The translations under genes were made by a program, and so were the position numbers. Below the pieces are notes generated by a model. The model searched no databases and had not been told where the DNA came from. It saw only the letters and a list, made by a program, of their open reading frames with translations. A stretch of DNA of 64,000 nucleotides from an uncultured Chloroflexia bacterium (GTDB taxonomy: Bacteria; Chloroflexota; Limnocylindria; Limnocylindrales; CSP1-4), in the NCBI GenBank assembly GCA_963707215.1, contig CAVPPB010000002.1:192001-256000 (forward strand). Reading direction: 5' to 3'. This document shows positions 34,016-55,726 of this stretch, one piece after another (the first letter of the stretch is position 1; every line of letters starts with the position of its first letter).

Positions 34016-34081
34016 GGGTGCTCCCCCACCCTGTTCGACGACCTGGCCTCAGTCAGTGGGTGCCCCTGCTAGCATCCACGG

Positions 34082-35837: not shown

Positions 35838-35889
35838 GGCCCGTACGCGCTCGGGCCGTCACGCGGCTCCGATTCCCAGGAGGGCTGCG

Positions 35890-37577: not shown

Positions 37578-37701
37578 TGGGGCGGCCGGGCCTCGCTTCG
37601 GCCCGCGACCGATCAGCTCGCTGATCCGACGGCCACCCCCTGCGGGCCCGGAGATGGTGGCTCCCCGAGGCTGACGCGGTGGGCGGTCAAGGGCGAGCAC
37701 C

Positions 37702-37739
37702 TGGCGCGCCCGGAGGCGGTCGGGCGCGAAGGAACGACA
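37702..37739 (-). repeat. att-like site: tRNA 3' end (15/16) plus palindromic arm
   Basis: TGGCGCGCCCG-gaggcggt-CGGGCGCGAAGGAACGACA. Confidence 0.8.
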
Positions 37740-37956
37740 CGTGCTGGTCGACCGCGCGGGAAGTCGGGACGTTGTCCTCTAGCACGCGCCTTGCGAGAGC
37801 AGGACCGTGGGCCCCGACAGCCCATGGCCGGCCCGCCATCCGGGCGCGCGACCACGGGCTCCTGTGAGTGGAGGACGCGGCGGAGCAGATCGTATACGAC
37901 ACCGGATCGACGGTGGTCAGCCCCCGGCCACCGGGATGGAAGCACCTGGAGGGCGC

Positions 37957-41412: not shown

Positions 41413-41441
41413 CGTGACGTCGATCTGACGTCCTGAGAGGA

Positions 41442-41477
41442 CGACGAGGCCGGGGGTTCCCGCCCCCGGCCTCGTCG
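41442..41477 (+). terminator. 15-bp hairpin after nucleotidase
   Basis: CGACGAGGCCGGGGG-ttcccg-CCCCCGGCCTCGTCG; no U tract. Confidence 0.6.
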
Positions 41478-41573
41478 CGTCGACCGTAGCCAGGCCCACG
41501 CCTGCCGGTCGGCTCTTGCTCACGGCGGCACGTCCGACCAGCGTTGGAGCCTCATTCGACGTGGAGGCGAGCG

Positions 41574-43268
41574 ATGCCGGAGGCTGGTGCGAGGCTTCGC
41601 CGTCCGTCAGGACGACGGTCGGCGATCGGGGGCTGGCTGGTCCTGGTCGTGGCCGGGGCCCTCGCCGCGATACCGCTCCTGCCGGCGGGCGTCCCGTCCG
41701 ACCCCGCGATCGTTGACTTCTCGGCCAGCCGGGCGCAGCGGCATGTCGAGCAGCTCGCCATCGAGCCGCGACCGATGGGCAGTGCCGCGATCGAGCAGGC
41801 CCGCGAGGTGATCGTCGATGAGCTGCGGCAGATGGGCCTGGACCCGGAGCTCCAGGCGATTGAGGCCCCGGACTACTATGGGATCGAGGGCGGTCCGGTC
41901 GAGGTCGTGAACGTTATGGCCCGGATCCCGGGCAGCTCGTCCACTGGAGCGGTGGCACTCGTTGGCCACTACGACACGTTCCCAACGTCGCCCGGCGCGA
42001 ACGACGATGCGTCCGCGGTGGCAGTGGTCCTCGAGTCGGCCCGGGCGATCCTTGCCGGGCCCCAGCCACGCAACGACGTGGTCCTGCTGTTCACCGACGG
42101 CGAGGAACCGGCGCCGAGATTCGGCTCATCGGCCTTCGTGGCGGAGCACCCCTGGGCCGGTGACGTGGACTTCATCATCAACCTCGAGGCACTCGGTGGC
42201 GATGGGCCCGCGGCACTCACCGCCTTCGCGGGGCCGGCCAGCCTGGCCGTCGACGGCTATGCCAGGTCCGTCCCGCAGCCGATGGCGTTCTCCTACCTCA
42301 CCGCGACGACCGAGCTGATCGGCGGGTCGAACACCGACTTCGCCACGTTCCGAGACGCCGGCGTGGCCGGGGTCGAGCTGGTCTACCTGCACGGGTCCTC
42401 GATCTACCACACGATGGCCGACACGCCGGGCCGGGTGAGCATGAGCAGCCTCCAGCATCAGGGCGAGAGCACCCTGGCGGTCGCGCGCCACATGGCCGAC
42501 CTGGACCTGGGTCGCCTGCCTCGGGCCGAGTCGACGGTCTTTCTCACGATCGGTCGGTACGTCGTTCGCTATCCCGCGGCACTCACCCTCGGGGCCCTCC
42601 TGCTGGCGGGCATCGCGCTTGCCCTCGGGACGATGACGGCTGCCAGATCCGGGCCACGGATCAGCTGGCGTCGTGCCTCGCGGGGTCTGGCCGCGGTCGC
42701 CATCACGGTGGTCGTGACGACGATCGGTGCGGTGGTCGCCTGGTCCCTGGTGGCCGGAGCGAGGAAGGACATGGGGCTCGCCGAGAGCTACCTGTACCTG
42801 GCAGCCCTGGTGCTGGTCGCCTGGGCGGTGCACGCGGGGGTCGAGCGCCTCGTGGGAGCTCGATCGGATCCGTCGTCCACTGCGGTTGGTGTCGTGGCTG
42901 CCTGGTGCCTGGTGGGCGCGCCGATCGTGCTCACCATGCCCGAGATCGGCTATCTGTTCGCCTGGCCGGCGCTCGTCGGCGGAGCGGTGATCCTGCTGCC
43001 GCGATCAGGCGACCGGAGCGGGTGGCTCGACGTGGCAGGGTTTGCGCTCGTCGCCACGACCGTCCTCGTCCTTCTGGTCCCGGCCATCGACACCTTCTAC
43101 CAGTTGGCGCAGCCGCGGCCGGGCAACCTGGACTCGCAGGTCCTCTGGATCGTCGCCATCCCAGCGGCGCTCGTCGCGCTCGTCGTCGAGCTGCTGGCGG
43201 CGTTCTGGCCTCGGTCGTCGCCTGCTCGGCCTCACGCGGTCGCGGACCCGGTGGCTCCCCGAAGTTGA
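41574..43268 (+). CDS. M28 family metallopeptidase with C-terminal TM helices
   Basis: GHYDT, GANDD, FTDGEE, NLEA, TDF, YHT. Confidence 0.9.
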   Translation: MPEAGARLRRPSGRRSAIGGWLVLVVAGALAAIPLLPAGVPSDPAIVDFSASRAQRHVEQLAIEPRPMGSAAIEQAREVIVDELRQMGLDPELQAIEAPDYYGIEGGPVEVVNVMARIPGSSSTGAVALVGHYDTFPTSPGANDDASAVAVVLESARAILAGPQPRNDVVLLFTDGEEPAPRFGSSAFVAEHPWAGDVDFIINLEALGGDGPAALTAFAGPASLAVDGYARSVPQPMAFSYLTATTELIGGSNTDFATFRDAGVAGVELVYLHGSSIYHTMADTPGRVSMSSLQHQGESTLAVARHMADLDLGRLPRAESTVFLTIGRYVVRYPAALTLGALLLAGIALALGTMTAARSGPRISWRRASRGLAAVAITVVVTTIGAVVAWSLVAGARKDMGLAESYLYLAALVLVAWAVHAGVERLVGARSDPSSTAVGVVAAWCLVGAPIVLTMPEIGYLFAWPALVGGAVILLPRSGDRSGWLDVAGFALVATTVLVLLVPAIDTFYQLAQPRPGNLDSQVLWIVAIPAALVALVVELLAAFWPRSSPARPHAVADPVAPRS

Positions 43269-43293
43269 CCCGGCGGGCAGCCGGGAGGGGGCC

Positions 43294-43327
43294 TCGGGCG
43301 CCCTGAGAGGCTCGCGCGGGTGCGAAC
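43294..43327 (-). repeat. Degenerate att-like site
   Basis: GGGCGCCCTGAGAGGCTCGCGCGGGTGCGAAC matches the 53284 site at 21/32 ungapped; same upstream context as 37702. Confidence 0.45.
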
Positions 43328-43335
43328 GGGAGCGC

Positions 43336-44676
43336 TCAGGTGGAGGCGAGCGCGAAGACTCGCCAGGAGTCCGGGACCCCCTTGAGCTGCTGCTCACCAC
43401 GATCCTCGAACTCCAGCCCCGAACCGGCCACGAGATCCTTGACCGTCCTCGACACCAGCACCTCTCCTGGCTCCGCCAGGGCGGCGATGCGGGCACCGAT
43501 CGAGACGGCGATGCCGACCACCTTGCCGTCGCTGATCTCGCACTCGCCGGTGTGGAGTCCGGCTCGCACGTCGAGCCCGATCTCGCCGAGCGGGTCGCGG
43601 ATGGCCGCCGCGGCCTGGACGGCCCGGGCCGGTCCGTCGAACGCCGCGAAGAACCCATCGCCGGCGGTATCGAGCTCGCGGCCGTGGAACCTGGCGAGCG
43701 CACGCCGGACGATCGAATGGTGGCGCTCGAGCAGGTCGCGCCAGGCGGCGTCGCCGAGCCGCGCGGCCAGCTCGGTCGAGCCGACGATGTCGGTGAACAG
43801 GATCGTCGCGAGGACCCGTTCGGGGGCGGTTCGACCCTGAAGGCGCGAGAGGAACCGGGCGGTGGCGGCTATCGTCGCCTCGGCGGCCCGGTCGTCGACC
43901 CAGGTGTAGACACCCTGGAAGGCAGGCAGCTCCTGGAGCTCGGCTCCGCGGATCCGCTTGGCCGCGTAGTGGGCGGGCCCGGGCAGTGTCGACCGCGGGA
44001 AGATCAGCGTCGGCACGCGGACCGCGGCGAGGACGTCGGTGACGTCGAGGTCCATCTCCGCCCGGAACGCGGTCAGGGCAGCACCGGGACTCAGGCTGCG
44101 GCGCATGTGCCAGACGAACCAGTCGCGGAAGGCGTCGTCCTCGGCGACCTCCGGGGCCCACTCGCGAGCCAGTCGCTCGAGATAGGCGCGCTCACCCCAG
44201 CCGGCCCGGATCTCGGCCAGGCGCCGACGCCACTCGTCCGGCGTCGGAGCCCATGGGTAGTCGGGCGCACGGGTGCCCTTGATCCGTGGATCGATCAGGA
44301 CGAGGCCCAGGCAGCGATCGGGATACGTTGCCGCGAAGAGCAGGCTGAGACCGGTGCTGGTGCTGCCGCTCCACAGGACGGCCTGTTCGGATCCCACGGC
44401 ATCCATGACGGCCCGGACGTCGTCCATCGCCGTGTCGAGCGACTGTACCTCGCGGACCCGGTCGGACAGGCCGGTGCCGCGCTTGTCCAGCATCAGCACC
44501 CGACCGGACTCGGCAAGACCCTCGACGTGGCGAGCGAGGAGCGGCTGCTCCCAGGTCGAGAGGAGATCGCCGGCGATCCCGCGCACGAAGACGATGTCCG
44601 TCGGTCCCTGGCCCACGACCTGGTAGGCGATCGCCACATCGCCGCTCCGCGCGTAGGAGACGTCGGGCGGTTTCAC
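43336..44676 (-). CDS. Alpha/beta hydrolase + class III cyclase fusion (LipJ/Rv1900c-like)
   Basis: YARSGDVAIAYQV, DKRGTGLSD; LFTDIVGST, DTAGDG, GIAVSIGARI. Confidence 0.9.
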   Translation of the reverse strand: MKPPDVSYARSGDVAIAYQVVGQGPTDIVFVRGIAGDLLSTWEQPLLARHVEGLAESGRVLMLDKRGTGLSDRVREVQSLDTAMDDVRAVMDAVGSEQAVLWSGSTSTGLSLLFAATYPDRCLGLVLIDPRIKGTRAPDYPWAPTPDEWRRRLAEIRAGWGERAYLERLAREWAPEVAEDDAFRDWFVWHMRRSLSPGAALTAFRAEMDLDVTDVLAAVRVPTLIFPRSTLPGPAHYAAKRIRGAELQELPAFQGVYTWVDDRAAEATIAATARFLSRLQGRTAPERVLATILFTDIVGSTELAARLGDAAWRDLLERHHSIVRRALARFHGRELDTAGDGFFAAFDGPARAVQAAAAIRDPLGEIGLDVRAGLHTGECEISDGKVVGIAVSIGARIAALAEPGEVLVSRTVKDLVAGSGLEFEDRGEQQLKGVPDSWRVFALAST

Positions 44677-44823
44677 CGGCCGAGTGTGGCCTATCGAAGC
44701 GGCCGATGCCACTCGCACTTCCGAAGACCAGGTGTGGACGGCTCGGATGAGCGGGACGCCACGCCGACGGCCCTCGGCCCGTGTCCTGCGCGGACAGCTC
44801 GGGCGGCGCCGGGCCGACCCGAC

Positions 44824-46116
44824 TCAGATCGATTCGGACCGCGTCGGAAGCCGGCCCGCGCCTGAACCCTGCGGAGTCGCATCTGCTGGGGCCATGCACT
44901 CCACGTCCTCGATGCGCCTGACCCGGCGGACGGGCGAGAAGACCACCCAGAGCGGCGCACCGGCGATCCCGATCGCCCCGACCGCCAGCGCGGCTCGAAG
45001 GCCGAATGCCTCGCCGACGATGCCCCCGAGGAGCGCGCCGATGGGCATGACGCCGTAGCCGAGCGTGCGGTAGCTGGCGTTCATCCGCGCCAGAAGGCGG
45101 TCCGGGGTGACGGTCTGCCGGATGGTCATGACGTGGATGACCGTGATCGCGATGAACGCACCGGCCAGGGCGAGGATGAGGGCGATGACGCCTACCGCGA
45201 TGGGGGAGGAGCCATCGATGAGCGGGAGCGCGAGGTAGACGCTGCAGGCGACGATCATCGCGCCGGTGATCGTGGTCCCAAGACCGAATTGTTTCGCGAG
45301 CCGTCCGGCGACCATGGAACCGACCAGCGAACCGACGGCACCGACGACGAAGATCGACCCGACGACCGCGGGCGCGACGCCCAGCTCCCGGGTGAGGTAC
45401 AGGAGGAAGGCCGCGTTGAGGGCGGCGGCGAACAGGTTGAACGTGGCGGCCTCGAGCGCGAAGGCGCGGAGGATGGGATGGCCGAACGTGGTTCGCAGGC
45501 CCTCCCCGATCTCCGCCCGGAGGTCGGGGCGGGCCGGGGCCGCCCGCACGGGCTCCGGCTGCCGGATCGCGGCCAGGCTGCCCGCTGACGCCAGGTAGCT
45601 CACGGCGTCAGCGGCGAGGGCGACCGGCGCGCCGACGAGCGACACCAGGGCACCCGCCAGCCCCGGACCGGCCACTTCGGCGGCCGACGCGCTCGAGAAG
45701 AGCTGTGCGTTCGCGGTCGCGAGCCGGTCTCGGCCGACCAGCGACGGGACGTAGGCGAGGAAGGCCACCTCGAACAGCACCGCACCGCAACCGGCGGCGA
45801 ATGCCACGAAGGCCAGGAGTGGCAGCGACAGCACGTCCAGGGCGGTCGCAAGCGGGATCGAGCCGATCAGTCCCGCGCGGGCCAGGTTCGCGGCCAGCAT
45901 CACGGGCCGGCGCCGGACCCGGTCGATCCAGGCCCCAGCGAACAGGGTCAGGAACAGGAACGGGGCGTACTCCACGGCGGCGAGCAGCCCCATCTCGAAT
46001 GGTGAGGCGTGAAGGACGAGGATCGCCGCCAGCGGCAGGGCCAGCAGCGTGACCTGCGATCCGAACAGCGAGACTGTCTCGCCGAACCAGAGATTCCGGA
46101 ACGCCGCGCTGTTCAT
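44824..46116 (-). CDS. MFS transporter
   Basis: FRNLW.GETVSLFG, GAWIDRVRRR motif A, about 12 TM segments. Confidence 0.9.
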   Translation of the reverse strand: MNSAAFRNLWFGETVSLFGSQVTLLALPLAAILVLHASPFEMGLLAAVEYAPFLFLTLFAGAWIDRVRRRPVMLAANLARAGLIGSIPLATALDVLSLPLLAFVAFAAGCGAVLFEVAFLAYVPSLVGRDRLATANAQLFSSASAAEVAGPGLAGALVSLVGAPVALAADAVSYLASAGSLAAIRQPEPVRAAPARPDLRAEIGEGLRTTFGHPILRAFALEAATFNLFAAALNAAFLLYLTRELGVAPAVVGSIFVVGAVGSLVGSMVAGRLAKQFGLGTTITGAMIVACSVYLALPLIDGSSPIAVGVIALILALAGAFIAITVIHVMTIRQTVTPDRLLARMNASYRTLGYGVMPIGALLGGIVGEAFGLRAALAVGAIGIAGAPLWVVFSPVRRVRRIEDVECMAPADATPQGSGAGRLPTRSESI

Positions 46117-46118
46117 GG

Positions 46119-46202
46119 CTCACCAGCGTAAGGACGTTGATGGTTAGCGTCTTGGCAGTCTAGGTCCAGAGTGCTAACCTGTCAAACAGAATGGCTGGTT
46201 AT
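46119..46202. promoter_or_regulatory. Two TAACC-N17-GGTTA-type palindromes between MFS and CGNR genes
   Basis: 46119-46147 and 46174-46202 share arms and 17-nt spacing. Confidence 0.6.
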
Positions 46203-46817
46203 TCACGGAGGCTTCTCAGTCCGGCCGATCCGCCGGTCACGGCGTCATCACGGACCGCGAGACGAGACCCAGCGCCGGGCGGGCTCGAGCTCGTGCGTGC
46301 GTTCATCAACTCGTCCGACATCGAGAAGGGCACCGATGAGCTCGCCACCACCGCGGGGGTCGAGGCGTGGCTCCGCTCCCGAGGCCTTCCCGACCACGAG
46401 AGCGGGGTGACCGAGGACGAGCGGCGGCGGCTGGAGTCCTTCCGCGAAGCGCTCCGGGATCTCATCACGTGCCGTGAGCGAGGGGAGCCAGCCCCCGAGG
46501 CGCTCGAGCTCCTCGACGAAGCCTCCCGGTTGAGCCCCTTGACGGTCGCCTTCGATGCCAACGGCAGCCCGATGTTGCGCCCGGCTCGGGCAGGCGTCAT
46601 CGGGCTCGTCGGGCTGATCATGAGTGAGATCTCGGCCGCGTCGGTCGCCGGCACGTGGCCCCGCCTCAAGGTCTGCCGGAGCGACGCCTGCCGATGGGCG
46701 TTCTACGACGCGTCACGGAACCGCTCCGGGATCTGGTGCTCGATGGCAGTCTGCGGGAACCGGTCGAAGAGTCGGGCCCTGCGGGTCCGCCGTCGGGACG
46801 GACGCACCGGGGGGTGA
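46191..46817 (+). CDS. ABATE/CGNR zinc-finger regulator
   Basis: RLKVC...CRWAFYD.SRN...WCSMAVCGNR; start uncertain. Confidence 0.9.
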   Translation: MAGYSRRLLSPADPPVTASSRTARRDPAPGGLELVRAFINSSDIEKGTDELATTAGVEAWLRSRGLPDHESGVTEDERRRLESFREALRDLITCRERGEPAPEALELLDEASRLSPLTVAFDANGSPMLRPARAGVIGLVGLIMSEISAASVAGTWPRLKVCRSDACRWAFYDASRNRSGIWCSMAVCGNRSKSRALRVRRRDGRTGG

Positions 46818-46901
46818 CTGGCGAGGCGGCTCCTGAGGGGGCCCGCCCGATCGAGTCCTAGGCGGGGCAGGTGCCGACGAGGGGCACCGTCGCCCGGCTC
46901 G

Positions 46902-47609
46902 CTACTCGAACGCTGTGTTCGTGGCGCTCAGGAGGGCGCTCTGCAGCGTGGCCGGCGAAGCGTGCGCGGCGAGCAGAGCCTCCAGGTCCGCGAGCGCCCG
47001 GGAGACATCGTGCTCGGCCGTTTCGTGATGGCCTTCGACCGTGACGATGATCTCGGTCGTGTCTGCTCGGGCCGAACTCCGGGCGCTCTGCCGCCAGCAC
47101 CAGCGTCGGGCGCTCACGACATCCGCTTGATCCGCGAAGATCACCTCGCCGGGCTCCGGCTGCTCGGTCTGGCTCGAGCCGAGGTCGGCCCAGCGTTCGT
47201 CGCCGCGGGCGAACCGGACGGTCGTGCCGCCTGCGACCCCGCGCTGATCGAACACCGCGACCGGAAGCGCGTAGCGGATGCTCACCAGGTTGGCGAGATC
47301 GACCAGCGTCCCGATGGACGGCAGTCCGCCCTGCTTGGTCAGGCGCCGCAGGAGTGCCTCGGCCGCCGAGCGGTACTGCGTCGGATCGACACCGAATCCC
47401 CGGAACACCTTGCGCCAGGCTGCCAGCGTGGGCATCTCGCTGAGAGGCGTATCGGCGATCCGCGCGCGGACCGCGAGCGTCTCCTCGTCGAAGGCTGCGG
47501 CGAGTCGAGCCGGCGTCGGGCCGTTGTGGACGCCGGTGGCGTGGATGGCGCCTCCCACGATCGCCGGGAAGCGCTCCACGACGTCCGGGTCATAGCGGAG
47601 GCGTGCCAC
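46902..47609 (-). CDS. B3/B4 (PheRS-beta-like) tRNA-editing domain protein
   Basis: AWR..F..FG.DPTQYRSAAEALLRR, LVDLAN.VS, WCWRQS. Confidence 0.88.
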   Translation of the reverse strand: MARLRYDPDVVERFPAIVGGAIHATGVHNGPTPARLAAAFDEETLAVRARIADTPLSEMPTLAAWRKVFRGFGVDPTQYRSAAEALLRRLTKQGGLPSIGTLVDLANLVSIRYALPVAVFDQRGVAGGTTVRFARGDERWADLGSSQTEQPEPGEVIFADQADVVSARRWCWRQSARSSARADTTEIIVTVEGHHETAEHDVSRALADLEALLAAHASPATLQSALLSATNTAFE

Positions 47610-47768
47610 GAGACGAGTCTCCCACAGGGGCGCCTCCGGGATGGGGCCTCACCGTCCTGTCGTTGCCCCCTGGTCAGAGGGTTCCACGCGAGTCTTCCTG
47701 CGCTCGACGTCTTCCTTCGCGACGCCCACGAGCACGGCTCACGGGCAAGCCGTTCCCGGCCGATGCTC

Positions 47769-47807
47769 TGGCGCGCCCGGAGGGGCGCCGGGCCCGCAGA
47801 GGCAACA
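47769..47807 (-). repeat. att-like site: tRNA 3' end (16/16) plus arm
   Basis: TGGCGCGCCCG-gaggggcgc-CGGGCCCGCAGAGGCAACA. Confidence 0.85.
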
Positions 47808-47992
47808 GGACCTGTGCCTCTGGTCGGGACGGGTCTTGGGGCGGAACCTGTTCGCATCGAGGCGGACGATCCGGGCTCACCGGCTCCGGGCCGGCCCTCG
47901 CGCACCGCCCGAGTTGCCCTCGGCGCGGCAGCGGGTCGCGGCCGACGCGGCTTGGCCAGCCTGGCAGTCCGTCCTCGATGGAGGAGGCTGCC

Positions 47993-48757
47993 GTGACGAC
48001 GACGGCGTTGGGGGCGAACACGGAGCGAGCAGATGGACCGGGGGTGTCGCCGGGGGGCGAGCCGGACGGCGCCGGGGGCGACGGCCCGGCTCGCGGGCTC
48101 GATGACCGCATCACAGTCGCACGACTCGATCCATCGAGCTATCGAGACGCCCTTGACGTTCTTGCCCTGAGCTGGACGGACGAGCCAGCGTTCAGCCACG
48201 TCCTGGGAGGCACTCCGCGTCGCCGGCTGCGGGTGCTCAGACCGTTCCTCTGGACCGGGTTCCGGAGCTATCCGGGCGCCATCGAGGTCCACGGGGCGAG
48301 ACTCGATGGCCGGCTGGTGGGCGTCGGCGTTCGGTACCCACCGGGGCGGTGGCCGGTCACCCGCCGTGAGGAGATACGCGGCTGGGTATGGGGGATCCTC
48401 GGGATGCTCCCCATGCTCGTCGCATTCCCGCAGGCACGTCGCCTCTTCGGCCCGCTGGGCGACCTCCAGGGTCGCCACCCGCGTGACACGCCCCACTGGT
48501 ACTTGTGGTTGATGGGGGTGCACCCGTCGTTCCGCCGCCGGGGTGTCGCGTCGGCGCTCGCGCGGTTCGTCACGGGCCAGGCCGACGCCGCTGGCGTCGG
48601 CTGCTACACGGAGACGCTCGGCGACGGGACGGAGGCCCTCTACCGAGGCTTCGGCTTCGAGGTCCGGGAGCGCTGGGAGATGATTCCCGGCGCGCCGATG
48701 GCCCGGACGATGTGGCGCGCGCCCCGGCGGCGCGAGCCCGTCTCGGACTCAGGCTGA
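47993..48757 (+). CDS. GNAT acetyltransferase
   Basis: HWYLWLMGVHP.FRRRGVA, YTET, LYRGFGF; GGAGG RBS before GTG. Confidence 0.88.
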   Translation: MTTTALGANTERADGPGVSPGGEPDGAGGDGPARGLDDRITVARLDPSSYRDALDVLALSWTDEPAFSHVLGGTPRRRLRVLRPFLWTGFRSYPGAIEVHGARLDGRLVGVGVRYPPGRWPVTRREEIRGWVWGILGMLPMLVAFPQARRLFGPLGDLQGRHPRDTPHWYLWLMGVHPSFRRRGVASALARFVTGQADAAGVGCYTETLGDGTEALYRGFGFEVRERWEMIPGAPMARTMWRAPRRREPVSDSG

Positions 48758-48855
48758 CGGCGTCGCACGCCGATCTCGTCGAGGCCGGAGCGGGGAAACA
48801 GCGAAACCTCGAACCCGCCGCTCCTCTCGCGGACCTGGTACGGACACGGGGCCAT

Positions 48856-48893
48856 TGGCGCGCCCGGAGGGCTGTGGACGCGCAGGACCAACA
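48856..48893 (-). repeat. att-like site: tRNA 3' end (16/16) plus arm
   Basis: TGGCGCGCCCG-gagggctg-TGGACGCGCAGGACCAACA. Confidence 0.85.
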
Positions 48894-48924
48894 AGCGCTG
48901 CTTGAGAACGCATGGCTCGGGCAG

Positions 48925-49115
48925 GCGTGACAATCCAGGCGCGCCACGTTCCCGTCGTAAAGCTCGCCGAGGAGCACCAAGCGCTCGGGGTCGGTCCCGT
49001 GGTCGGCAGCGTGTGCCACCGCGTACGACACGCGCGGCGAGGGCACCGTTCCGCTCGGCGACGAGCAGCCCTCGAGCACGAGCGCCGCGACGCACAGCGG
49101 CATGACCGGGTTCAT
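48925..49115 (-). pseudogene. Possible esterase lipoprotein remnant
   Basis: Lipobox-like LEGC, then AHAADHGTDPERLVLLGELYDGNVA resembling a decayed DP.R..L.GxSxGG. Confidence 0.4.
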
Positions 49116-49198
49116 CGGCGCCGACGCCGCCGTGGGGTCGGGTCATCCGGATGACGATCCCGGGACTTCCGGCCCTGCCGCATGCCACACGATATTCA

Positions 49199-49210
49199 GT
49201 AATACATTAC
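49199..49210. promoter_or_regulatory. MarR-type operator palindrome
   Basis: GTAAT-ac-ATTAC directly before ATG 49213. Confidence 0.55.
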
Positions 49211-49212
49211 GC

Positions 49213-49710
49213 ATGCAGCACGAGACAACGGACCCATCGCCCGATCCGCGCCCCGTCGCCTTCGGCACCGTCTTCATCGTCGCGCACCACCTCGACCTGC
49301 TCGGCGATGTCGCCCTGGCCCCGCTCGGGCTCACGACCAAGCAGTGGCTCCTGCTCGCCGTCATCGAGCGGGCCTTCGCGGGGCACCACCCGACGCTGAG
49401 CGAGGCGGCGGCCGCGTATGGGAGCTCCCGCCAGAATGTCAAGGCGATGGCGCGGGCCCTCGAGGCCGCGGGCTACCTGCGGCTCGTGCCCGACGCGGTC
49501 GACGGCAGGGCCACCCGGCTCGAGCCGACCGCCCGCCTCGAGGTGTTCGCGACACCGGAGTGGAAGGCCCGCGAGGCGGCGTTCTTCGAGTTCGCCTTCG
49601 GTGGCCTCCCCGCGGAGGACGTGGCCAGCCTCGCCGACCTCCTGCAGCGCTGGCTCGCCGCGGTGGCCGCCATGCCGAACGTTGCCACGCGAGTGAAGGG
49701 AGCGAAATGA
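49213..49710 (+). CDS. MarR-family regulator
   Basis: GLTTKQWLLL, SSRQNVK...LE..GY, D..DGRA. Confidence 0.88.
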   Translation: MQHETTDPSPDPRPVAFGTVFIVAHHLDLLGDVALAPLGLTTKQWLLLAVIERAFAGHHPTLSEAAAAYGSSRQNVKAMARALEAAGYLRLVPDAVDGRATRLEPTARLEVFATPEWKAREAAFFEFAFGGLPAEDVASLADLLQRWLAAVAAMPNVATRVKGAK

Positions 49711-50114
49711 TCGTCCGACTGCTGGCGGCCGCCCTGCTGGCGGCTCACGGCCTCATCCACCTGATTGGGTTCCTCGTGCCCTGGCAGATCGCCCAGGTGG
49801 AGGGCTTCGCGTACCGGACGACGGCACTCGGCGGGAGCGTGGAGCTCGGCACGATCGGAGCGCAGCTCGTCGGCCTCGCCTGGCTCGCGATCGCGGTCGG
49901 CTTCGTCGTCGCCGCGGTCGGTGTCTGGCGCCGGTCTGCGTGGGCGCTCGGGCTGACCGGCGCGCTCGCGATCGCGTCCCTCCTCGTCTGCGTCCTCGGA
50001 CTGCCCGAGACGGTGGCCGGGATCGTCGTGAACGTGGCGATCCTCGCGGCTGCGGCCTGGCTGGCGCTATTCCGGGGGCGCGTGACTGCCCCGGCGACCG
50101 GCGGAGGGCGGTGA
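49707..50114 (+). CDS. Membrane protein (about 4 TM)
   Basis: HGLIHLIGF motif; ATGA-coupled to MarR. Confidence 0.75.
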   Translation: MIVRLLAAALLAAHGLIHLIGFLVPWQIAQVEGFAYRTTALGGSVELGTIGAQLVGLAWLAIAVGFVVAAVGVWRRSAWALGLTGALAIASLLVCVLGLPETVAGIVVNVAILAAAAWLALFRGRVTAPATGGGR

Positions 50115-50908
50115 TGGCACGACCCGTCTCGAAGGCCCGATTCGGGGAGCTCGTCGAGGCCGAGTTCGCGGCCCAGCCGCTCACGCCGTCATCGACGCTC
50201 GCCGAGGAGGACCTGGCGCCCCTGCCCGCTCCCGTCCAGCGCTACGTCCGCGCCTCCGGTGCCGTCGGCCGGCCGCGGCCGCGCAACGTCCGGATCGAGT
50301 TCGATGCCGTCATGCGGCGCAAGCCGGGCGATCAGGGGATGGCCGCGACGTCCGTCCAGTACAACTTCTTCGATCGGCCGGCGCGGCTCTTCTTCATGAC
50401 GGCCCGGATGCACGCGCTGCCGGTGCAGGCCCTCCACGTCTACCGGCTCGAGGAGGCCACCTTCACTGTTCGCGTCGCCTCCCTGGTGAACATGGTCGAC
50501 CAGCATGGCCCGGAGATCAGCCGGGCCGAGACGGTGACCGTCCTCAACGACCTCTGCGTGTTCGCGCCGGGCGCGCTCGTCGACCCCCGGCTCAGCTGGC
50601 AGCCGATCGACGACCGGAGCGCCGCCGTGACGTTCACGAACGGCCCGCACCGTGTCTCGGCAACGCTCCTCTTCGGCGAACACGGCGAGCTGGTCGACTT
50701 CTGGTCGGACGATCGGCCCGACAGCAGCAGTGGCCGCTTCGTGCCGATGCGCTGGAGCACGCCCGTCGGCGATCATCGCGAGGTCGGCGGCCTCCGCCTG
50801 CCGACGCGGGGCAGCACCATCTACGCCCGTCCGGATGGCCCGTTCACCTACGGCGAGTTCACGCTGCGCTCGCTCGCCTGCGATGTCCCCGGACCGCACG
50901 GCGGGTAG
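50114..50908 (+). CDS. DUF6544-like protein
   Basis: DL.PLP.PVQRY, QYNF...P.R.F, ETVTVLND, WSTP. Confidence 0.75.
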   Translation: MARPVSKARFGELVEAEFAAQPLTPSSTLAEEDLAPLPAPVQRYVRASGAVGRPRPRNVRIEFDAVMRRKPGDQGMAATSVQYNFFDRPARLFFMTARMHALPVQALHVYRLEEATFTVRVASLVNMVDQHGPEISRAETVTVLNDLCVFAPGALVDPRLSWQPIDDRSAAVTFTNGPHRVSATLLFGEHGELVDFWSDDRPDSSSGRFVPMRWSTPVGDHREVGGLRLPTRGSTIYARPDGPFTYGEFTLRSLACDVPGPHGG

Positions 50909-50952
50909 CCACGCCGCGCATGCTCTCCCGGACACACCTCACGGGGGACCCA

Positions 50953-51399
50953 GTGGACATCCTCTCGGCCGCGATCATCATCTTCGCCGTCATCGAGACG
51001 CTCAACGTCGGCATCCTCTACTTCCGTCCCGGCACGCGCGTGGGCAACGGGATGGGCGTGTTCAACGCCTATCGGACGTCGGAAGCCGACCCGGAGACGC
51101 GCGAGCTCGTCCGCTACCTGGTCAACTGGGTGGCCGGCACCAAGCTCATCTTCGTGGGCCTGCTCGCCGTGATCGTCCTCACGGGCAGCCAGACGACGAA
51201 GGCGTTCGCGGTCATGGCCCTGATCCTCTCGATCCTCTCGTTCTTCTGGCGCCTGTTCCCGGGGATCGTTCGTCTCGACCGGGACGGTCAGATCACCCCG
51301 AGCGGGTACTCGAGGACGCTGGGGATCATGATCGCGTGCTTCGTCGGGGGATTGGCCGCAGCGTTGGTCGTGTCCCTCGCGTTCGGTTCCGGCGGCTGA
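50953..51399 (+). CDS. Hypothetical membrane protein
   Basis: Hydrophobic helices, YLVNWVAGTKLIF, strong GC3 bias. Confidence 0.7.
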   Translation: MDILSAAIIIFAVIETLNVGILYFRPGTRVGNGMGVFNAYRTSEADPETRELVRYLVNWVAGTKLIFVGLLAVIVLTGSQTTKAFAVMALILSILSFFWRLFPGIVRLDRDGQITPSGYSRTLGIMIACFVGGLAAALVVSLAFGSGG

Positions 51400-51477
51400 C
51401 GAGGCCGCTGCCTCACGCAACCCGACGCGGAGCGCGGCCCTTCGGCCCGAGCTCGCGACCTTCGCCCCTCGCCGGGA

Positions 51478-51666
51478 GCGCAGCTCCCGTCAACGGCGAC
51501 AGGCTGTGCCTCGAGCACACGATGTTCAGCCAGACGGTGTTCGGGGACGCCGGCCCCCTGGGCTTCACGCTCGTGGGCGAGTGGGATGCTGTCGGCGGCA
51601 CGGGGCGGTTCGCCCATGCGACGGGACACGGCACGCTGGACGGGGCTGGTGACATCCCCGACGGAC
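51478..51666 (+). pseudogene. Internal fragment of a beta-barrel secreted-type protein
   Basis: NGDRL...GEW..VGGTGRFAHATG.G motif without a proper start. Confidence 0.45.
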
Positions 51667-51859
51667 GGGGACGTTGGGCCTTCCTGACGGCCTCGCGGCG
51701 TTCAACTTCACGGGCGGGACGCGTACGATGCATCGGACCGCTCGATGAAGCCGCAGGACCGAGGGCTCATCCCCCGGTCGCGTTACGCATCGTCAGGGGC
51801 CTCAATCGCGCTGTCGCTCTCGACCAGCTGCCCGCGATGGCACGGCTCCTGACCGCGTC

Positions 51860-51892
51860 CAGGTGTCGCCGATGTCGCGACGCAGGTGTCGC
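51860..51892. mobile_element. IS481-type subterminal repeat remnant
   Basis: 30/33 identical to 55596-55628. Confidence 0.75.
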
Positions 51893-51927
51893 TCGAGCCC
51901 CACGGCGTCAGGCGCGCAGGAGCAATA
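51893..51927 (-). repeat. Degenerate att-like site (right arm retained)
   Basis: GGCGCGCAGGAGCAATA matches the arm consensus GGCGCGCAGGAACAACA. Confidence 0.5.
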
Positions 51928-52173
51928 CGGGCGACGGATCGGGCCCGCCGGGGCGCGGCACGAGATGAACCGCCCCGGGTTCGTCGCGGACCGGGATCGC
52001 TGAGTCGCGGGTGCGCGACCGGAGGCCGTTCGCCCGCCCCGACCCATCCACGCACTCCGCCAGGGCGAAGGTCAGACGAGAGCAGCCGGGCGCCCTCCGG
52101 GCGTCGTGGCCTGGCGAGCAGGGGCGATGTCCCGAAGCTCGGTCCAGCGGAACACGTGAAGGTGAGTGCCACG

Positions 52174-52740
52174 GTGGGTGAGACGATCAAGATCCTGATC
52201 CTCGCGGGCAGTCTCCGCCGGGGCTCGTACAACCGGGCGCTGGCGCGTGCTGCTGCGCAGCTCGCACCGAGCGGCGTGGCCACCGCGACGTTCGATGGGC
52301 TCGGCGCCCTCCCGTTCTACGACGGGGACGTCGAGGACGAAGGTCTGCCCGCGAGCGTCAGTGCGCTGCGGCGGGCGATCGTGGAAGCCGACGCGCTGCT
52401 CCTCGCGACCCCCGAGTACAACGGCGCCACGAGTGGGGTCCTCAAGAACGCCCTCGACTGGGCCTCCCGCGGGCCCGACAGGATCCTCGCCCGAAAGCCC
52501 GTCGCGGTCATGGGCGCGTCGACCGGGGCGAGTGGTGCGAGAGGTGGGATCGAGTCGGTCGTGCGGATCATGACCCGCGTGCGTTCGGAGGTGGTCGGTC
52601 ACCTCGTCGCCGTTCCGTTCGCGGCGCAGGCGTTCGACGACGACCTGGCCCTGCGGGACCCGGAGATTCGCACCGAGGTCGCCGAGCTGGTCGCCGAGCT
52701 CGCCGGTCGCGCTCGCAGCAGCACCGCTCTCGCCGCCTGA
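52174..52740 (+). CDS. NADPH-dependent FMN reductase
   Basis: GSLRRGSYN, TPEYN, LKNALDW, KPV. Confidence 0.92.
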   Translation: MGETIKILILAGSLRRGSYNRALARAAAQLAPSGVATATFDGLGALPFYDGDVEDEGLPASVSALRRAIVEADALLLATPEYNGATSGVLKNALDWASRGPDRILARKPVAVMGASTGASGARGGIESVVRIMTRVRSEVVGHLVAVPFAAQAFDDDLALRDPEIRTEVAELVAELAGRARSSTALAA

Positions 52741-52792
52741 CGGGCTGCCTCGCAGCAGGGCCGCGGAGCGTGAGCGGTGCTACCGTCGCCGC

Positions 52793-53239
52793 ATGAGTGG
52801 CACCGCGGCGCCCCACCGGTCGTCGCTTCCTCGGACCATCGCACGGGTGGCCCTGGGGTTGGTCCTGCTGGTCGCCGGCATCGCCCATCTCACCTTCGGC
52901 CGCGAGGAGTTCACCGCGCAGGTCCCGGACTGGCTGCCGGTGGCCGACGACCTCGTCGTCGTCGGGTCGGGTGTCGTCGAGCTCGCACTCGGCGCGTCCC
53001 TCATCGCCCTGCCGCGCCATCGGGTCGCCGTGGGCTGGCTGTCGGCAGCGTTCCTCGTCGCGATCTTCCCGGGGAACATCGCCCAGTACGTGAACCAGGT
53101 CGACGCCTTCGGGCTCACCAGCGACGGGGCGCGAGCGGCCCGCCTGGTCCTCCAGCCGCTTCTCGTCCTGTGGGCTCTCTGGTCGACGGATGCATGGCGC
53201 GACCGGGCAATGCTCTGGAGAGTGGTTGGCGGCCCGTGA
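52793..53239 (+). CDS. DoxX-like membrane protein
   Basis: AGIAH, QVP.WLP, SGVVE, IFPGNI, RL..QP. Confidence 0.85.
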   Translation: MSGTAAPHRSSLPRTIARVALGLVLLVAGIAHLTFGREEFTAQVPDWLPVADDLVVVGSGVVELALGASLIALPRHRVAVGWLSAAFLVAIFPGNIAQYVNQVDAFGLTSDGARAARLVLQPLLVLWALWSTDAWRDRAMLWRVVGGP

Positions 53240-53265
53240 TAGGCGGAGGTGCCGGCCGGCGGCTT

Positions 53266-53282
53266 TGTCGCGACGCATGACA
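53266..53282. mobile_element. IS481-type terminus
   Basis: TGTCGCGACGCATGACA, 16/17 identical to 55632-55648, also 1 nt before the tRNA-end copy. Confidence 0.8.
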
Positions 53283-53283
53283 A

Positions 53284-53321
53284 TGGCGCGCCCGGAGGGC
53301 ATCGGGCACGCAGGAACAACA
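53284..53321 (-). repeat. att-like site: tRNA 3' end (16/16) plus arm
   Basis: TGGCGCGCCCG-gagggcat-CGGGCACGCAGGAACAACA. Confidence 0.88.
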
Positions 53322-53516
53322 ACGGCCACGCTCCTGTTCAACGATGGCCCCTGCTCCTCCCGAGTGGCCCGCTCTGATAGGGATAGACCCCAGATCGCTT
53401 GTCCGTCAGCCGCTCGGTTGATATTCGGGTCTGGACGGCCAGTGGCGACGGGTGGTTCAAGCGGTGGAACGGGACCCGCCCCAGGACCGCGAGATCGACC
53501 AGCCGGCCCGACGTCG

Positions 53517-53708
53517 CTAGCTGTCGTCCGAGCCCTGCTCCGATTGCCAGAATCCGAGGCCAAGGACGACGAAGACGACGCACAGGACGATGAACGCCGC
53601 GTTGGCCGCGATGGCCCCAGTGTCGCCAACGAATCCAGCGACTCCCGCGATCAGAAAGCACAGTGCGGCGATCAAGTACATCACCGCTGCTCTACGCCGA
53701 GCCTTCAA
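53517..53708 (-). CDS. Small two-TM membrane protein
   Basis: AAAGGAGG RBS before TTG; two hydrophobic helices; locally lower GC. Confidence 0.55.
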   Translation of the reverse strand: MKARRRAAVMYLIAALCFLIAGVAGFVGDTGAIAANAAFIVLCVVFVVLGLGFWQSEQGSDDS

Positions 53709-53801
53709 GCCAATTCCTCCTTTCGCAGTAGTTGTGCAGGTTGGGCGGTCATCTCCAGAGCTCGCCCCCAGGGCCCCACGACCACATGACCTCTGAACAC
53801 G

Positions 53802-53852
53802 TGCCGATGGCCATCTGAAGGTCCCCGCCTGTGGCCAAGAGAAGTCCCCACC
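53802..53852. mobile_element. IS21-like end remnant
   Basis: TG start, then TGGCCA...GAAG(G)TCCCC repeated twice, resembling IS21 subterminal repeats. Confidence 0.45.
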
Positions 53853-53904
53853 GGGCGACGGCGTCGTGGACGGCGGCCCAGGCGACGATGCCGTGGGAAC
53901 TCGC

Positions 53905-54225
53905 TCAGTCGGGCAGGCCCGCAAGCGCTTCGTGCATCGCGGTCCGGTAGCGGCGGAACGCAGCTCGCCCTTCGTCGGTGAGCGAAACCATCGAGTGCGG
54001 CTTCTTTCCCCTATAGCCCTTCTCGATCGCCACGTAGCCCGCGGTCTCGAGCTTGGTCAGACTGGTAGACAGATTGCCCCACGTCAGTCCGGTCTGGTTG
54101 ATCAGCCAGGTGAAGTCGGCCGCATCCAGGACGGCCAGCTCGATCAGCAGGCGCAATCGTGCCGGCGAGTGGATCACGGGATCGATCTCCTCGAGCGGAT
54201 GAGCGCCCGGATCGCTACTGGTCAT
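53905..54225 (-). CDS. Winged-helix regulator (HTH_34/ArsR-like)
   Basis: DPVIHSPARL, LTWGNLS..L.KLE.AGY, LT.EGR.AF..Y. Confidence 0.88.
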   Translation of the reverse strand: MTSSDPGAHPLEEIDPVIHSPARLRLLIELAVLDAADFTWLINQTGLTWGNLSTSLTKLETAGYVAIEKGYRGKKPHSMVSLTDEGRAAFRRYRTAMHEALAGLPD

Positions 54226-54856
54226 GCAGTTCTCCGGCCGCCTCTGGGGCCGCCCGATGCGTTCTGGCCAGCAGGCGAGCGAATTGGGTCACGCCGATGC
54301 TCGCGACCACCACGGCCGCCACTCCGAAGGTCACCGGCCAGCCGTGGTGCGCGGCGTAGCCCTCACGGAACAGCCATTCCCCGATGACCACCGCCGCCGC
54401 GAACATGAGCCCATAGAGGTACAGCCGCGGCGTGTCCAGGTAGTAGGCCGCCGTCGAGAAGAGCACGAGCCAGATCAGCATGAACATGATCGTTGGCGCG
54501 TAGCCGGCCGACGGGCTCAGGAGGAAGGCGATCAACCCTCCCCCGAGGGCGATGACGTTGACCGCCAGCATGAGCAGCATGAACGTCCGAAGGCGTCGCT
54601 GCCGGTAGTCGCCGACGCGCACGATGCCAACTCGGGAGACCAGCAGCCGACTCCGGACCAGCTTGATCAGCAGGTACGCACCTCCCACCACAGGGACCAG
54701 GATCGCCGAGCTCCAGAAGTCGCCCAGCGACTCGCTCAGCAGCAGGATGAGGGCGAAACCCGCCAAGAAGCAGGCGAGCAACACGTCCCACAATCCGTCG
54801 TCGTAGGCGTTGCGGAACGCCCTGCGCTCCGCCTGTCCGAGATCGGTGAGTGTCAT
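54215..54856 (-). CDS. Membrane protein
   Basis: Y.DGLWD, several TM helices; GAGGAG RBS; overlaps regulator start. Confidence 0.8.
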   Translation of the reverse strand: MTLTDLGQAERRAFRNAYDDGLWDVLLACFLAGFALILLLSESLGDFWSSAILVPVVGGAYLLIKLVRSRLLVSRVGIVRVGDYRQRRLRTFMLLMLAVNVIALGGGLIAFLLSPSAGYAPTIMFMLIWLVLFSTAAYYLDTPRLYLYGLMFAAAVVIGEWLFREGYAAHHGWPVTFGVAAVVVASIGVTQFARLLARTHRAAPEAAGELHDQ

Positions 54857-54872
54857 GGTCGCACTCCTCAAG

Positions 54873-54921
54873 AGTACTTTGCAGGTCAAAGTACTTTAGC
54901 CTCCTACGCCTGGCATGTCAA
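54873..54921 (-). promoter_or_regulatory. Promoter with perfect 9-bp inverted-repeat operator
   Basis: Minus TTGACA-17 nt-TAAAGT; AGTACTTTG-caggt-CAAAGTACT at 54873-54895. Confidence 0.75.
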
Positions 54922-55648
54922 GCCGGCCACCGGGACGGCGGCGACGACGTGGTGGCCACGTTCAGCGCGGCAGGCGAGGAGCACGGGTGGCCCGCCGCCC
55001 CGCTCACCGACACCGGCGCGGTCTACACGTCGCGCTTCACCGGGGGCCGCAACGGCTTCGAGTACCTGCTCGCCTACCTCGGCATCCGCCAGAAGAACGG
55101 GACGCCGGGCCATCCCCAGACCCAGGGCAAGAACGAGCGCTTCCGCCAGACCCTCAAGCGCTGGCTCGAGAACCAGCCGGCGGCGCGGACCCTGGGCGAG
55201 CTCCAGACCCAGCTCGACGCCTTCTGCCTCGCCTACAACGAGCAGCGGCCGCACCGGGCGGTCGGCCGGATGACGCCCGGCGAGGCGTACCGGGCGACGC
55301 CCACGACGATGGTCGCCGGGAGCCGCGCCGGCCACTTCCGTCTCCGCTACGACGTGACCGACGGGAAGGGCGCGATCACCCTGCGCCGGGCCGGCCGCCT
55401 GCACCACCTCAACATCGGCGCGGCTCATGCCCGTCAGCGGGTCCTGGCCATCGTCGACGAGCACGAGGTCACGGTCGTCGCCCTCGACACCGGCGAGGTC
55501 CTGTCCAGCCACCTCATCGAGCCGGACCGCCGGTACTGGCGCAACCAACGAAGAGACCCCGGCCGATGGCCGAGGTCTCCAGCGACCGGGTGACGCATGT
55601 GTCGCCGATGTCGCGACTCATGTGTCGCACATGTCGCGACTCATGACA
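54922..55648 (+). mobile_element. 5'-truncated IS481-family element (transposase C-terminal part to 55593, right end)
   Basis: LTDTG, PGHPQTQGKNERF, YNEQRPH..GRMTP; two 23-nt subterminal repeats, terminal ACA. Confidence 0.85.
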
Positions 55649-55649
55649 C

Positions 55650-55726
55650 TGGCGCGCCCGGAGGGATTCGAACCCCCGACCCTCTGATCCGAAGTCAGAT
55701 GCTCTGATCCACTGAGCTACGGGCGC
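55650..55726 (-). tRNA. tRNA-Arg (anticodon TCG)
   Basis: 77-nt cloverleaf, GCGCCCG/CGGGCGC acceptor, TCTGA-CTTCGGA-TCAGA anticodon arm, GGTTCGAATCC, encoded CCA. Confidence 0.97.

Follow-up and report, generated by a model that had tools for sequence, protein, structure and literature searches.

An IS481-family insertion sequence that inserts at tRNA 3' ends and probably alternates with cargo modules beside a tRNA-Arg(TCG) gene

What places one and the same short sequence a single nucleotide from the end of a tRNA gene, and then again in the DNA beyond it? This question is raised by a tRNA-Arg(TCG) gene in a stretch of 64,000 nucleotides (nt) from an uncultured Chloroflexia bacterium (GenBank assembly GCA_963707215.1, contig CAVPPB010000002.1, positions 192,001 to 256,000), which we call the window; window coordinates count from its first letter. 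Its G+C content is about 70%, and the source genome amounts to 3.26 Mb in 5 contigs. Our answer, to which we assign a probability of about three in four, is that the repeated sequence is the right end of an insertion sequence (IS) of the IS481 family which integrates site-specifically at tRNA 3' ends, and that small cargo modules have entered the same tRNA in alternation with it. The features on which this argument turns are as follows.

55650..55726, minus strand: tRNA-Arg(TCG), called by ARAGORN and the sole tRNA-Arg(TCG) called in the genome.
55650-55665, plus-strand reading: the repeated 'core', the last 16 nt of the tRNA (CCA, discriminator, acceptor 3' strand and T-stem 3' strand).
55649..55649, no strand: C, the one nucleotide that separates the IS right end from the CCA (0-1 nt in relatives).
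54931..55648, plus strand: IS remnant 1, equivalent to positions 595-1315 of a 1315-bp IS481-family element, with 92% identity to the copy at locus L001.
55596..55648, plus strand: right inverted-repeat region, with two presumed transposase-binding motif copies (55609-55625 and 55632-55648) and a terminal ...ACA.
53266..53282, plus strand: IS remnant 2, the right-end terminus (17 nt), 16/17 identical to 55632-55648.
53284..53299, plus strand: exact 16-nt copy of the tRNA 3' end (core), such as would be left behind when further DNA entered at the tRNA.
51860..51892, plus strand: IS remnant 3, which covers the inner right-end repeat (1263-1295 in a full copy of 1315 bp) and stops 20 nt short of the IS terminus.
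51893..51930, plus strand: a degenerate core and then a degenerate palindromic arm, GTCAGGCGCGCAGGAGCAATACGG, directly after IS remnant 3.

The CCA end of the tRNA is read on the plus strand as TGG at 55650-55652, and its 16-nt tail as TGG-C-GCGCCCG-GAGGG; the 17-mer that forms the IS right end, TGTCGCGACTCATGACA (55632-55648), stops 1 nt short of this tail. Rfam, applied to 33000-56500, recovered the same tRNA-Arg(TCG) and no other match. The initial annotation, made from the letters of the window, had noticed that the 34 nt at the tRNA (55632-55665) recur at 53266-53299 with 32/34 identical, and that a third remnant, identical to 55596-55628 at 30/33 positions, abuts a degenerate attachment (att) arm. 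Both observations were upheld. The first repeat extends to 39 nt at 90% identity (53266-53304 against 55632-55670), with an A at 53283 as the spacer between remnant 2 and the core copy that follows it. Chance is excluded as the source of these repeats by the match counts: with up to three mismatches, the 17-mer has four matches in the window where 0.23 are expected, and none of 100 shuffles reaches four. One of the four, at 55609, is the inner repeat of the IS itself, and that at 32865 is probably due to chance.

By its profile match, its ends and its organisation, the element belongs to the IS481 family. Pfam places an rve_3 domain in the fragment at 54850-55593, and IS remnant 1 encodes transposase residues 168-394, with its stop at 55593; it is without the helix-turn-helix (HTH) domains and the first part of the catalytic core. 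These residues are 88% identical to those of a 395-residue relative. The truncated fragment scores 97 bits on the NCBIfam IS481 equivalog model NF033577, and IS481 is still its best-scoring family; complete relatives pass the 224-bit cut-off of that model (L001, 248.7 bits; L021, 235.3 bits), so that the label 'IS481-type' given in the initial annotation is borne out. On the NCBIfam model ISNCY_2, which we take to represent IS1202-type transposases, the transposase scores 77 bits against a cut-off of 250. Four relatives (L001, L006, L015 and L021) have a single open reading frame (ORF) of 395-396 codons with no frameshift, and the full transposase carries the Pfam domains HTH_23/28/29/32, rve and rve_3. 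Full copies measure 1310-1332 bp (about 1315) and begin with TGT and end with ACA in 12/12 reference copies. Each end contains two copies of the motif TGAGTC..GACAT.GG.GACA, and the distance between them is 23 nt on the right and 42 nt on the left; because of this difference in spacing the two ends are not equivalent, which fits an insertion that is oriented. The nearest relatives of the element lie in Chloroflexota/Limnocylindria metagenome bins, and more than 7,700 relatives at E <= 1e-20 are found in metagenomes of soil and sediment, under generic names only.

Where, then, do such elements insert? With the C-terminal 208 residues of the window fragment we gathered 80 loci, of which 47 (L001-L047) hold close relatives; with the window, these give a genome set of 48 right ends once two chance matches that have no IS homology (W32881 and L040:3137) are set aside. 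A second, metagenome set of at least 113 ends was obtained by scanning contigs with an 18-nt right-end pattern, to remove the bias that comes from anchoring on the gene. In the genome set, all 48 right ends are followed after 0-1 nt by tRNA 3'-end sequence. The right end abuts a tRNA called by ARAGORN, on the opposite strand and within 0-3 nt, in 27 cases: Arg(TCG) in seven, Arg(TCT) in five, Arg(CCG) in four, Glu in three, Ala(CGC) and Pro(TGG) in two each, and Asn, Ser(GGA), Ser(TGA) and Gln once each. A tRNA tail and T-loop that ARAGORN did not call are abutted by seven ends, a 15-17-nt tail copy followed by the left end of a second IS by six, and a tail copy followed by a palindromic arm by five; one more reaches the contig end after 17 nt of tail, and two are degenerate. 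Among the 113 metagenome ends listed, tRNA-end sequence follows in 90: 45 abut a called tRNA (at 1 nt in 35 cases, 0 in six, 2 in three and 3 in one), 14 abut tRNA-like 3' parts, 28 a tail copy and then other DNA, and three a tandem IS. Thirteen have too short a flank to judge, eight of these starting with TGG. This set adds Val(TAC), Arg(CCT), Ala(GGC), Ala(TGC) and Tyr, which brings the tRNA species hit to 15 over both sets.

The distance from the IS end to the CCA was scored for 82 ends, and is 1 nt in 68, 0 in 13 and 2 in one. The orientation of the IS relative to the tRNA is one and the same across both sets, bar the polarity of the tail at L084 (L084:106-190). There, the IS right end is followed by an Arg tail in the opposite (sense) orientation and by AAACCACAAC; it is the sole reversed polarity among the 113 ends listed. 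Independent insertions thus share one target feature at a fixed distance and in a fixed orientation, as a site-specific IS should. The initial annotation had proposed that tRNA ends are the target of an IS481 lineage, at a constant distance and in a constant direction and in alternation with modules, and that collecting homologous copies and tabulating their flanks would reveal it; the two sets, with their 15 tRNA species, bear this proposal out. Two controls behave otherwise. The 34 loci of distant IS481 relatives (33-49% identity) hold one tRNA, which is not adjacent, and the tRNA-Arg(TCG) genes of three relatives have no IS end and lie in unrelated flanks. The flanks and cargo of the window have no counterpart in the 47 close loci, and murJ is beside no tRNA in eight relatives.

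The fixed distance from CCA in many genomes is also what one would see if the motif were a conserved tRNA flank, such as a processing or terminator signal, rather than the end of a mobile element. We give this idea practically no credence: the motif is contiguous with a transposase gene and has an inverted copy about 1.3 kb away with a flanking duplication, just one of the tRNAs called in the source genome has it, and it is absent from the tRNA-Arg(TCG) of the same three relatives.

How the target may be recognised is suggested by an alignment of 44 distinct 40-nt targets, in which acceptor positions vary (0.1-1.2 bits) and the CCA and the T-loop box GGATTCGAACC are constant, although the filter that selected these targets required both. 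Since the CCA and the T-loop box are all that the targets share, we infer that the transposase reads these universal tRNA features in double-stranded DNA. An RNA guide was considered and rejected: the non-coding ends of 12 reference copies contain no complement of the T-loop box, and the acceptor stems of the targets vary. The sequence GTTCGAG occurs only inside the transposase gene of some reference copies.

Another key observation to emerge from the relatives is the direct repeat around those copies that retain both ends (n = 28). A perfect repeat of 15-17 nt flanks 12 of them, for example 17 nt of tRNA-Asn at L003, 17 nt of Arg(TCT) at L004, 16 nt of Ala at L011 and 16 nt of Pro at L041; three further copies differ in the first nt only, and three by one mismatch or indel. 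The duplicated segment comprises the T-stem 3' strand, the acceptor 3' strand, the discriminator and the CCA, and the tRNA gene is left whole. Its inner border is the junction of the T-loop with the T-stem 3' strand, and its outer border lies 0-1 nt past the CCA. The duplicated sequence is always that of the tRNA that was hit; because the repeat follows the tRNA in this way, it is copied from the target and not carried by the element as an att core. Random insertion of homologous copies, which the initial annotation had named as the finding that would speak against it, is not what the full copies display: they carry this 15-17-bp tRNA-end duplication. Its length is at or just above the top of the 2-15-bp range given for IS481 in the part of the source available to us (PMC10045372), and it places the element at the border of IS481 and the ISTde1 subgroup of IS1202. 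We also noted that at L034:4294-6629 an IS30-like IS (HTH_38 + rve) is nested in the tRNA-targeting IS, the outer copy of which keeps a 16-17-nt tRNA-Glu duplication. An earlier interpretation of this locus as an IS with a passenger gene was rejected, the 2.3-kb insert being this other IS (HTH_38 + rve).

The IS remnants of the window are set in a larger structure: from 34000 to 55665, a 21.6-kb array of six integrase-less cargo modules lies downstream of tRNA-Arg(TCG). Its parts are as follows.

53300..53325, plus strand: palindromic arm of module A, CGGGCACGC (inverted acceptor 3' strand) and then AGGAACAACAA; conserved at 37718, 47785, 48872 and ~51906.
53300..54930, no strand: module A cargo, an HTH_34 regulator (53905-54225, minus strand) and an unassigned 224-residue protein (54215-54889, minus strand); G+C 64-65%.
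51931..53265, plus strand: module B cargo, an FMN reductase and a DoxX/MauE-like membrane protein.
48856..51859, plus strand: module C, with core copy 48856-48871, arm, and a cargo of MarR, DUF6544 and one unknown.
34000..48855, plus strand: older part of the array, in which the cores at 34000, 37702 and 47769 bound three further modules that have no IS traces.

The 16-nt tail copies are exact at 47769, 48856 and 53284, carry one mismatch each at 34000 and 37702, and are degenerate near 51893. After each comes an arm that consists of 3-5 variable nt, CGGGCGCGC (an inverted copy of the acceptor strand) and AGGAACAACA. Between the tail copies lie one to six ordinary cargo genes, which encode GNAT, EamA, TetR, hydrolases, 5'-nucleotidase, M28 peptidase, MFS, MarR, DUF6544, FMN reductase, DoxX and the HTH_34 regulator. 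No Phage_integrase domain was found by Pfam in the 24 ORFs over 31592-57219, and PF00589 (tyrosine recombinase) occurs at three places only in the source genome, all on another contig. Xer-like recombinases are encoded at C3:167976 and C3:219909.

The same architecture of core plus arm recurs in L008, L022, L040, L043 and many metagenome loci. L022 contains a complete module with inverted ends, GAACAAGACG ... CGTGTTGTTC, that are flush with tail-like sequences. The arm co-varies with the tRNA type: behind the inverted acceptor 3' strand stands a short flank motif that is GAACAACA for Arg(TCG) and TTGCAACC for Arg(CCG). An att core borne by the element and cognate to one tRNA may therefore hold for the cargo modules. 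Judged by its sequence, the module site is consistent with a pair of inverted half-sites separated by an 8-10-nt spacer, one good half-site coming from the tRNA. An inverted acceptor 3' strand with a short flank motif describes the arm better than a degenerate T-arm does, and better than the 5' acceptor strand of the tRNA with its upstream flank. Hairpins of core plus arm are predicted in 3/4 window junctions, with energies not beyond those of shuffles (z -1.7 to +0.85), and a generic search for palindromes after TGG returned 4017 matches, swamped by the high G+C.

Elsewhere in the source genome, this type of module is seen at tRNA-Arg(CCG) (C3:1647212-1651550, L081), with a 22-nt direct repeat (TTGCAA + tail) that extends 6 nt past the CCA, and at tRNA-Pro(CGG) (C3:1268222-1279790, L082), where the arm is the inverted Pro tail; a junction of the Arg(CCG) type stands inside the Pro island at C3:1276958. 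No IS homology was found at any of these three places. Arg(CCG)-type arms have a property of their own (L081, L082, L008, L040, L104, L131, L164, L165, L169 and L187): a reading frame starts at the spacer nt + TG (ATG/GTG/TTG) and runs for 34 codons through core and arm, ending …ATYEIPIEGRDEWLAAARRLA-stop, with conservative amino-acid changes between copies. A small LuxR/GerE-type HTH gene begins where this frame ends, its start overlapping the stop.

Because core-plus-arm junctions stand at Arg(CCG) and Pro(CGG) with no IS homology, the modules would constitute a separate, non-autonomous integrating system that is independent of the IS and is presumably moved by a site-specific recombinase. 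The alternative is that the IS transposase, or paired IS copies, drive the whole array, by composite or one-ended transposition or through circles from tandem IS copies, and that the cores are simply target duplications. Several observations agree with that: no integrase was found in the array or in the modules of related loci, the 16-nt core is close in length to the 15-17-nt IS duplication, 3/6 window modules have an IS right-end remnant at their right border, and tandem IS copies 15-17 nt apart are common (six in the genome loci and three among the metagenome matches listed). The clearest case is the composite at L018:90-4695, in which a perfect 15-nt tRNA-Pro repeat encloses a truncated IS (1-233), a ~3-kb stretch that has two unknown ORFs, a copy of an Arg-type tail and a complete IS; IS copies can thus relocate cargo between tRNAs, by composite transposition or by recombination between IS copies. 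As an account of the whole array we nonetheless consider it unlikely. Module left ends do not resemble that of the IS, and most of them lack an initial TGT; the idea that the arm is a variant IS left end was rejected when comparison by eye and with MAFFT yielded only TGT and a few bases in some copies. In addition, modules are present at two other tRNAs of the source genome with no IS homology, the 22-nt direct repeat at tRNA-Arg(CCG), reaching 6 nt beyond CCA, is longer than any IS duplication seen, the other three of the six window modules have no IS trace, and an arm that is an inverted copy of the acceptor strand suits a two-half-site recombinase site. Given the same modules and arms at Arg(CCG) and Pro(CGG), there is no need to invoke the building or trimming of the array by the transposase that the initial annotation suggested, but L018 does reveal carriage of cargo by the IS.

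If IS and modules enter the same tRNA end by separate routes, in what order did they arrive? The condition of the IS copies bears upon this. In the genome loci, both IS ends are present in 20/26 tRNA-adjacent copies as against 0/5 arm-adjacent ones (p 0.003). In the metagenome set, the last 400 nt are intact in 12/21 tRNA-adjacent ends as against 4/24 others (p 0.006), a count that covers the 45 of the 113 ends listed that had enough flank. The window follows the same pattern: the remnant that touches the tRNA keeps 721 nt, and the displaced remnants keep 17 and 33 nt. This greater decay of copies that no longer touch an intact tRNA supports the alternating picture.

Target specificity, orientation, spacing, duplication and family assignment are shown by the copies themselves; the mode of recognition, the order of events and the module recombinase are inferred. 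We hypothesize the following sequence of events. The DDE transposase would make cuts staggered by 15-17 bp, one of them 0-1 nt beyond the CCA and the other at the border of the T-loop with the T-stem 3' strand, and the element enters with its right end towards the tRNA, so that the transposase gene is convergent with the tRNA. Gap repair would then duplicate the last 15-16 nt of the tRNA, with the gene remaining intact and the copy of its tail placed at the far end of the element. At the tRNA-Arg(TCG) of the window, such an insertion would have occurred at least three times, and between these insertions cargo modules would have entered the same tRNA end by a separate site-specific recombination that uses the palindromic att-like arm. 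Each later module, or another IS, would push the earlier IS outwards together with one copy of the core; the displaced copies would decay from their left side, leaving the present 721, 17 and 33 nt.

A single IS insertion might instead be supposed, the copy at 53266-53299 (and perhaps also that at 51860) being a local duplication that arose through a module A bearing the remnant or through unequal recombination between cores. The two 34-nt stretches do differ at only two positions, and module A is continuous with IS remnant 1, so the remnant may have travelled with the module. We regard this as very unlikely. Each remnant represents a different portion of the IS end (721 nt, the terminal 17 nt, and 1263-1295) rather than a copy of one block; the cores are 16/16 identical while the IS part and the spacer differ; and, with a lineage that inserts at tRNA ends wherever examined and often stacks, repeated insertion is to be expected. 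Even a remnant that arrived with a module would still record a separate tRNA-end insertion elsewhere.

Several points weigh against our reading of repeated IS insertion in alternation with modules. The order of IS first and module later is drawn solely from the decay of displaced copies, and 2/6 arm-adjacent metagenome ends keep their last 400 nt intact; direct insertion of the IS next to a core-plus-arm junction is a possible alternative to that order. All three IS copies of the window are without left ends, hence their own duplications are not visible, and the source genome (completeness 84.8%) contains no further IS copy and no intact rve gene. A recombinase for the modules was found neither in the array nor in the modules of related loci. 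Each sample was gathered by way of either the right end or the C-terminal portion of the transposase, and copies that lack these parts are invisible in both. Ten of the 113 metagenome ends listed were classed as 'other'; about four of these are tRNA-related, and about six have nothing tRNA-like after them. Among the 28 copies with both ends, 10 are flanked by different or hybrid tRNA tails, which need a second process. Finally, the evidence base consists of sequence assemblies, many of them metagenome bins.

The hybrid tails are instructive in their own right. In four loci (L032, L002, L010 and L031), tRNA sequences with a foreign tail stand beside an IS end: the bodies are Asn, Gly, Gln and Asn, respectively, and the last 15-17 nt are Arg or Ala-like. 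At L032:4702-4790, the whole body of a tRNA-Asn, which ARAGORN no longer calls, is joined to a 17-nt Arg(TCG) tail, and the left-hand copy is a hybrid. At L002:4686-4735, a tRNA-Gly fragment of 45 nt has precisely its first 15 nt exchanged for the Arg(CCG) type; an intact tRNA-Gly lies 2 kb away. The Gln and Asn bodies with a foreign tail are at L010:1398-1460 and L031:4699-4760, and in the latter one T-loop base is of the donor type too. Such tails could possibly derive from donor flank carried over in a junction of right inverted repeat, spacer and left inverted repeat, or from IS copies recombining with one another up to an end point in the shared T-loop. One may go further and propose that the transposase reads tRNA-wide features, that the adjacent 15-17 nt travel with the element into its next target, and that stacked copies shuttle cargo as at L018; as a whole we hold this to be doubtful. 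Recognition of shared features would open dozens of safe landing sites per genome, and a carried spacer (in a circular or tandem arrangement of right repeat, spacer and left repeat) would create tRNA genes with a foreign 3' end, of the kind seen at L032 and L002.

Other observations were made at tRNA genes and in the window. A 4.8-kb island at tRNA-Gly(CCC) of the source genome (C1:717584-722470, L083) is of a different, classical att type, with a boundary repeat of ~45 nt that reaches the anticodon loop and flanks that are similar too; its cargo is an M28 peptidase, a beta-lactamase-fold protein and DinB. A tyrosine recombinase gene at C3:400514-401049, matched in two pieces and possibly frameshifted, lies beside tRNA-Lys(CTT) (401182-401256) and is the only integrase-like gene seen next to a tRNA in the source genome. 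In the relative G009, the 3' part of tRNA-Arg(TCG) is present on contigs C5 and C6 in several copies of 41-47 nt with 98% identity, which suggests another array at this tRNA with a longer att repeat. In the window, six to seven tandem 21-nt repeats, GCTCGG[CT]TCGGGCGTC[GC]CCGT, lie at 32369-32521 inside a minus-strand ORF (31592-33001) with alpha/beta hydrolase matches, and probably encode a repetitive linker.

The tRNA-end target appears to be new for an IS481-type element: in the literature that we searched there was no description of one, and an unnamed record in ISfinder or in the supplements of papers is possible. Here a plain DDE insertion sequence reaches the safe harbour of the tRNA gene by other means, in that a long staggered cut duplicates the tRNA tail and the gene survives. 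The element offers a natural example in which to study two abilities of an integrase-like enzyme, the measuring of a 15-17-bp stagger and the recognition of a whole class of genes, and it is a possible compact tool for insertion at tRNA genes. In Limnocylindria-like Chloroflexota, where tRNA loci turn over rapidly, carry tandem arrays and occasionally contain chimeric tRNA genes, it would account for some of this. Elements of the IS481/IS1202 type had so far been linked with the sites at which small cargo modules recombine in the case of Xer sites, and the present case widens that link.

How does this compare with systems already described? Elements that use tRNA gene ends as safe harbours are typically tyrosine-integrase islands and phages in bacteria, and casposons in archaea. 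In tyrosine-integrase islands, the tRNA 3' end is regenerated, a displaced copy stands at the far junction, and repeated entry creates tandem arrays; the element brings the repeat with it (attP), which has to match a single tRNA. The IS described here has in common with them the safe landing site at the tRNA 3' end. It differs in that its repeat is copied from whichever tRNA is hit (15 species for one lineage) and that no integrase is present. Ty3 and the Dictyostelium TRE elements insert at tRNA genes with integrases of the DDE/rve superfamily, read the Pol III machinery and insert upstream of the gene. The 18-nt tRNA tail that serves as the retroviral primer-binding site nearly coincides with the 15-17 nt duplicated here, which may be a coincidence. 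The classic IS481 target is a short palindromic hexamer.

Also close to the element are IS481 members with long duplications. The accessible part of one account gives 2-15-bp duplications for the family, mostly of 6 bp, with 'not a few' of ~15 bp (PMC10045372). Those with ~15-bp duplications have the same single-ORF DDE (rve) transposase, TGT...ACA ends and size of ~1.3 kb; in contrast, the element described here makes duplications of 15-17 bp, inserts only at tRNA 3' ends and does so in one orientation, and the word tRNA is absent from that paper (PMC10045372). A further comparison is with ISTde1, of the IS1202 group, described in the portions available as an element of 1327 bp with a 394-residue transposase, 16-17-bp duplications and TGT ends, whose subgroup also occurs in Chloroflexi (10.1101/2022.12.17.520857, PMC10132070). 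Its 16-17-bp repeats agree with the 15-17 bp found here. The two are set apart by the transposase, which in our element fails ISNCY_2 (77 against 250 bits), the model that we assume to stand for the IS1202 type, and passes IS481.

Within IS1202, the same portions report site-specificity only for the subgroup with 5-6-bp duplications (ISAba32/ISAjo2), at XerC/D sites; its members dock 5 bp from the Xer sites that bound 'dif modules' (10.1101/2022.12.17.520857, PMC10132070). As in the window, an IS is docked beside the recombination site of integrase-less modules; the target there is an Xer site and not a tRNA gene, and the word tRNA is absent from both papers (10.1101/2022.12.17.520857, PMC10132070). 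Together with this group and the integrase-borne islands, family 2 casposons are the closest functional parallels. According to the part of the source available, their Cas1 integrase inserts them into tRNA genes at the 3' end, that of tRNA-Pro in Aciduliprofundum boonei, duplicates 14-15 bp of the target, and recognises motifs inside and beside the duplicated segment (PMC6614799). Their enzyme is Cas1 and not a DDE/rve transposase, they are large self-replicating archaeal elements, and each has one tRNA target, as against the many that are used by the IS described here.

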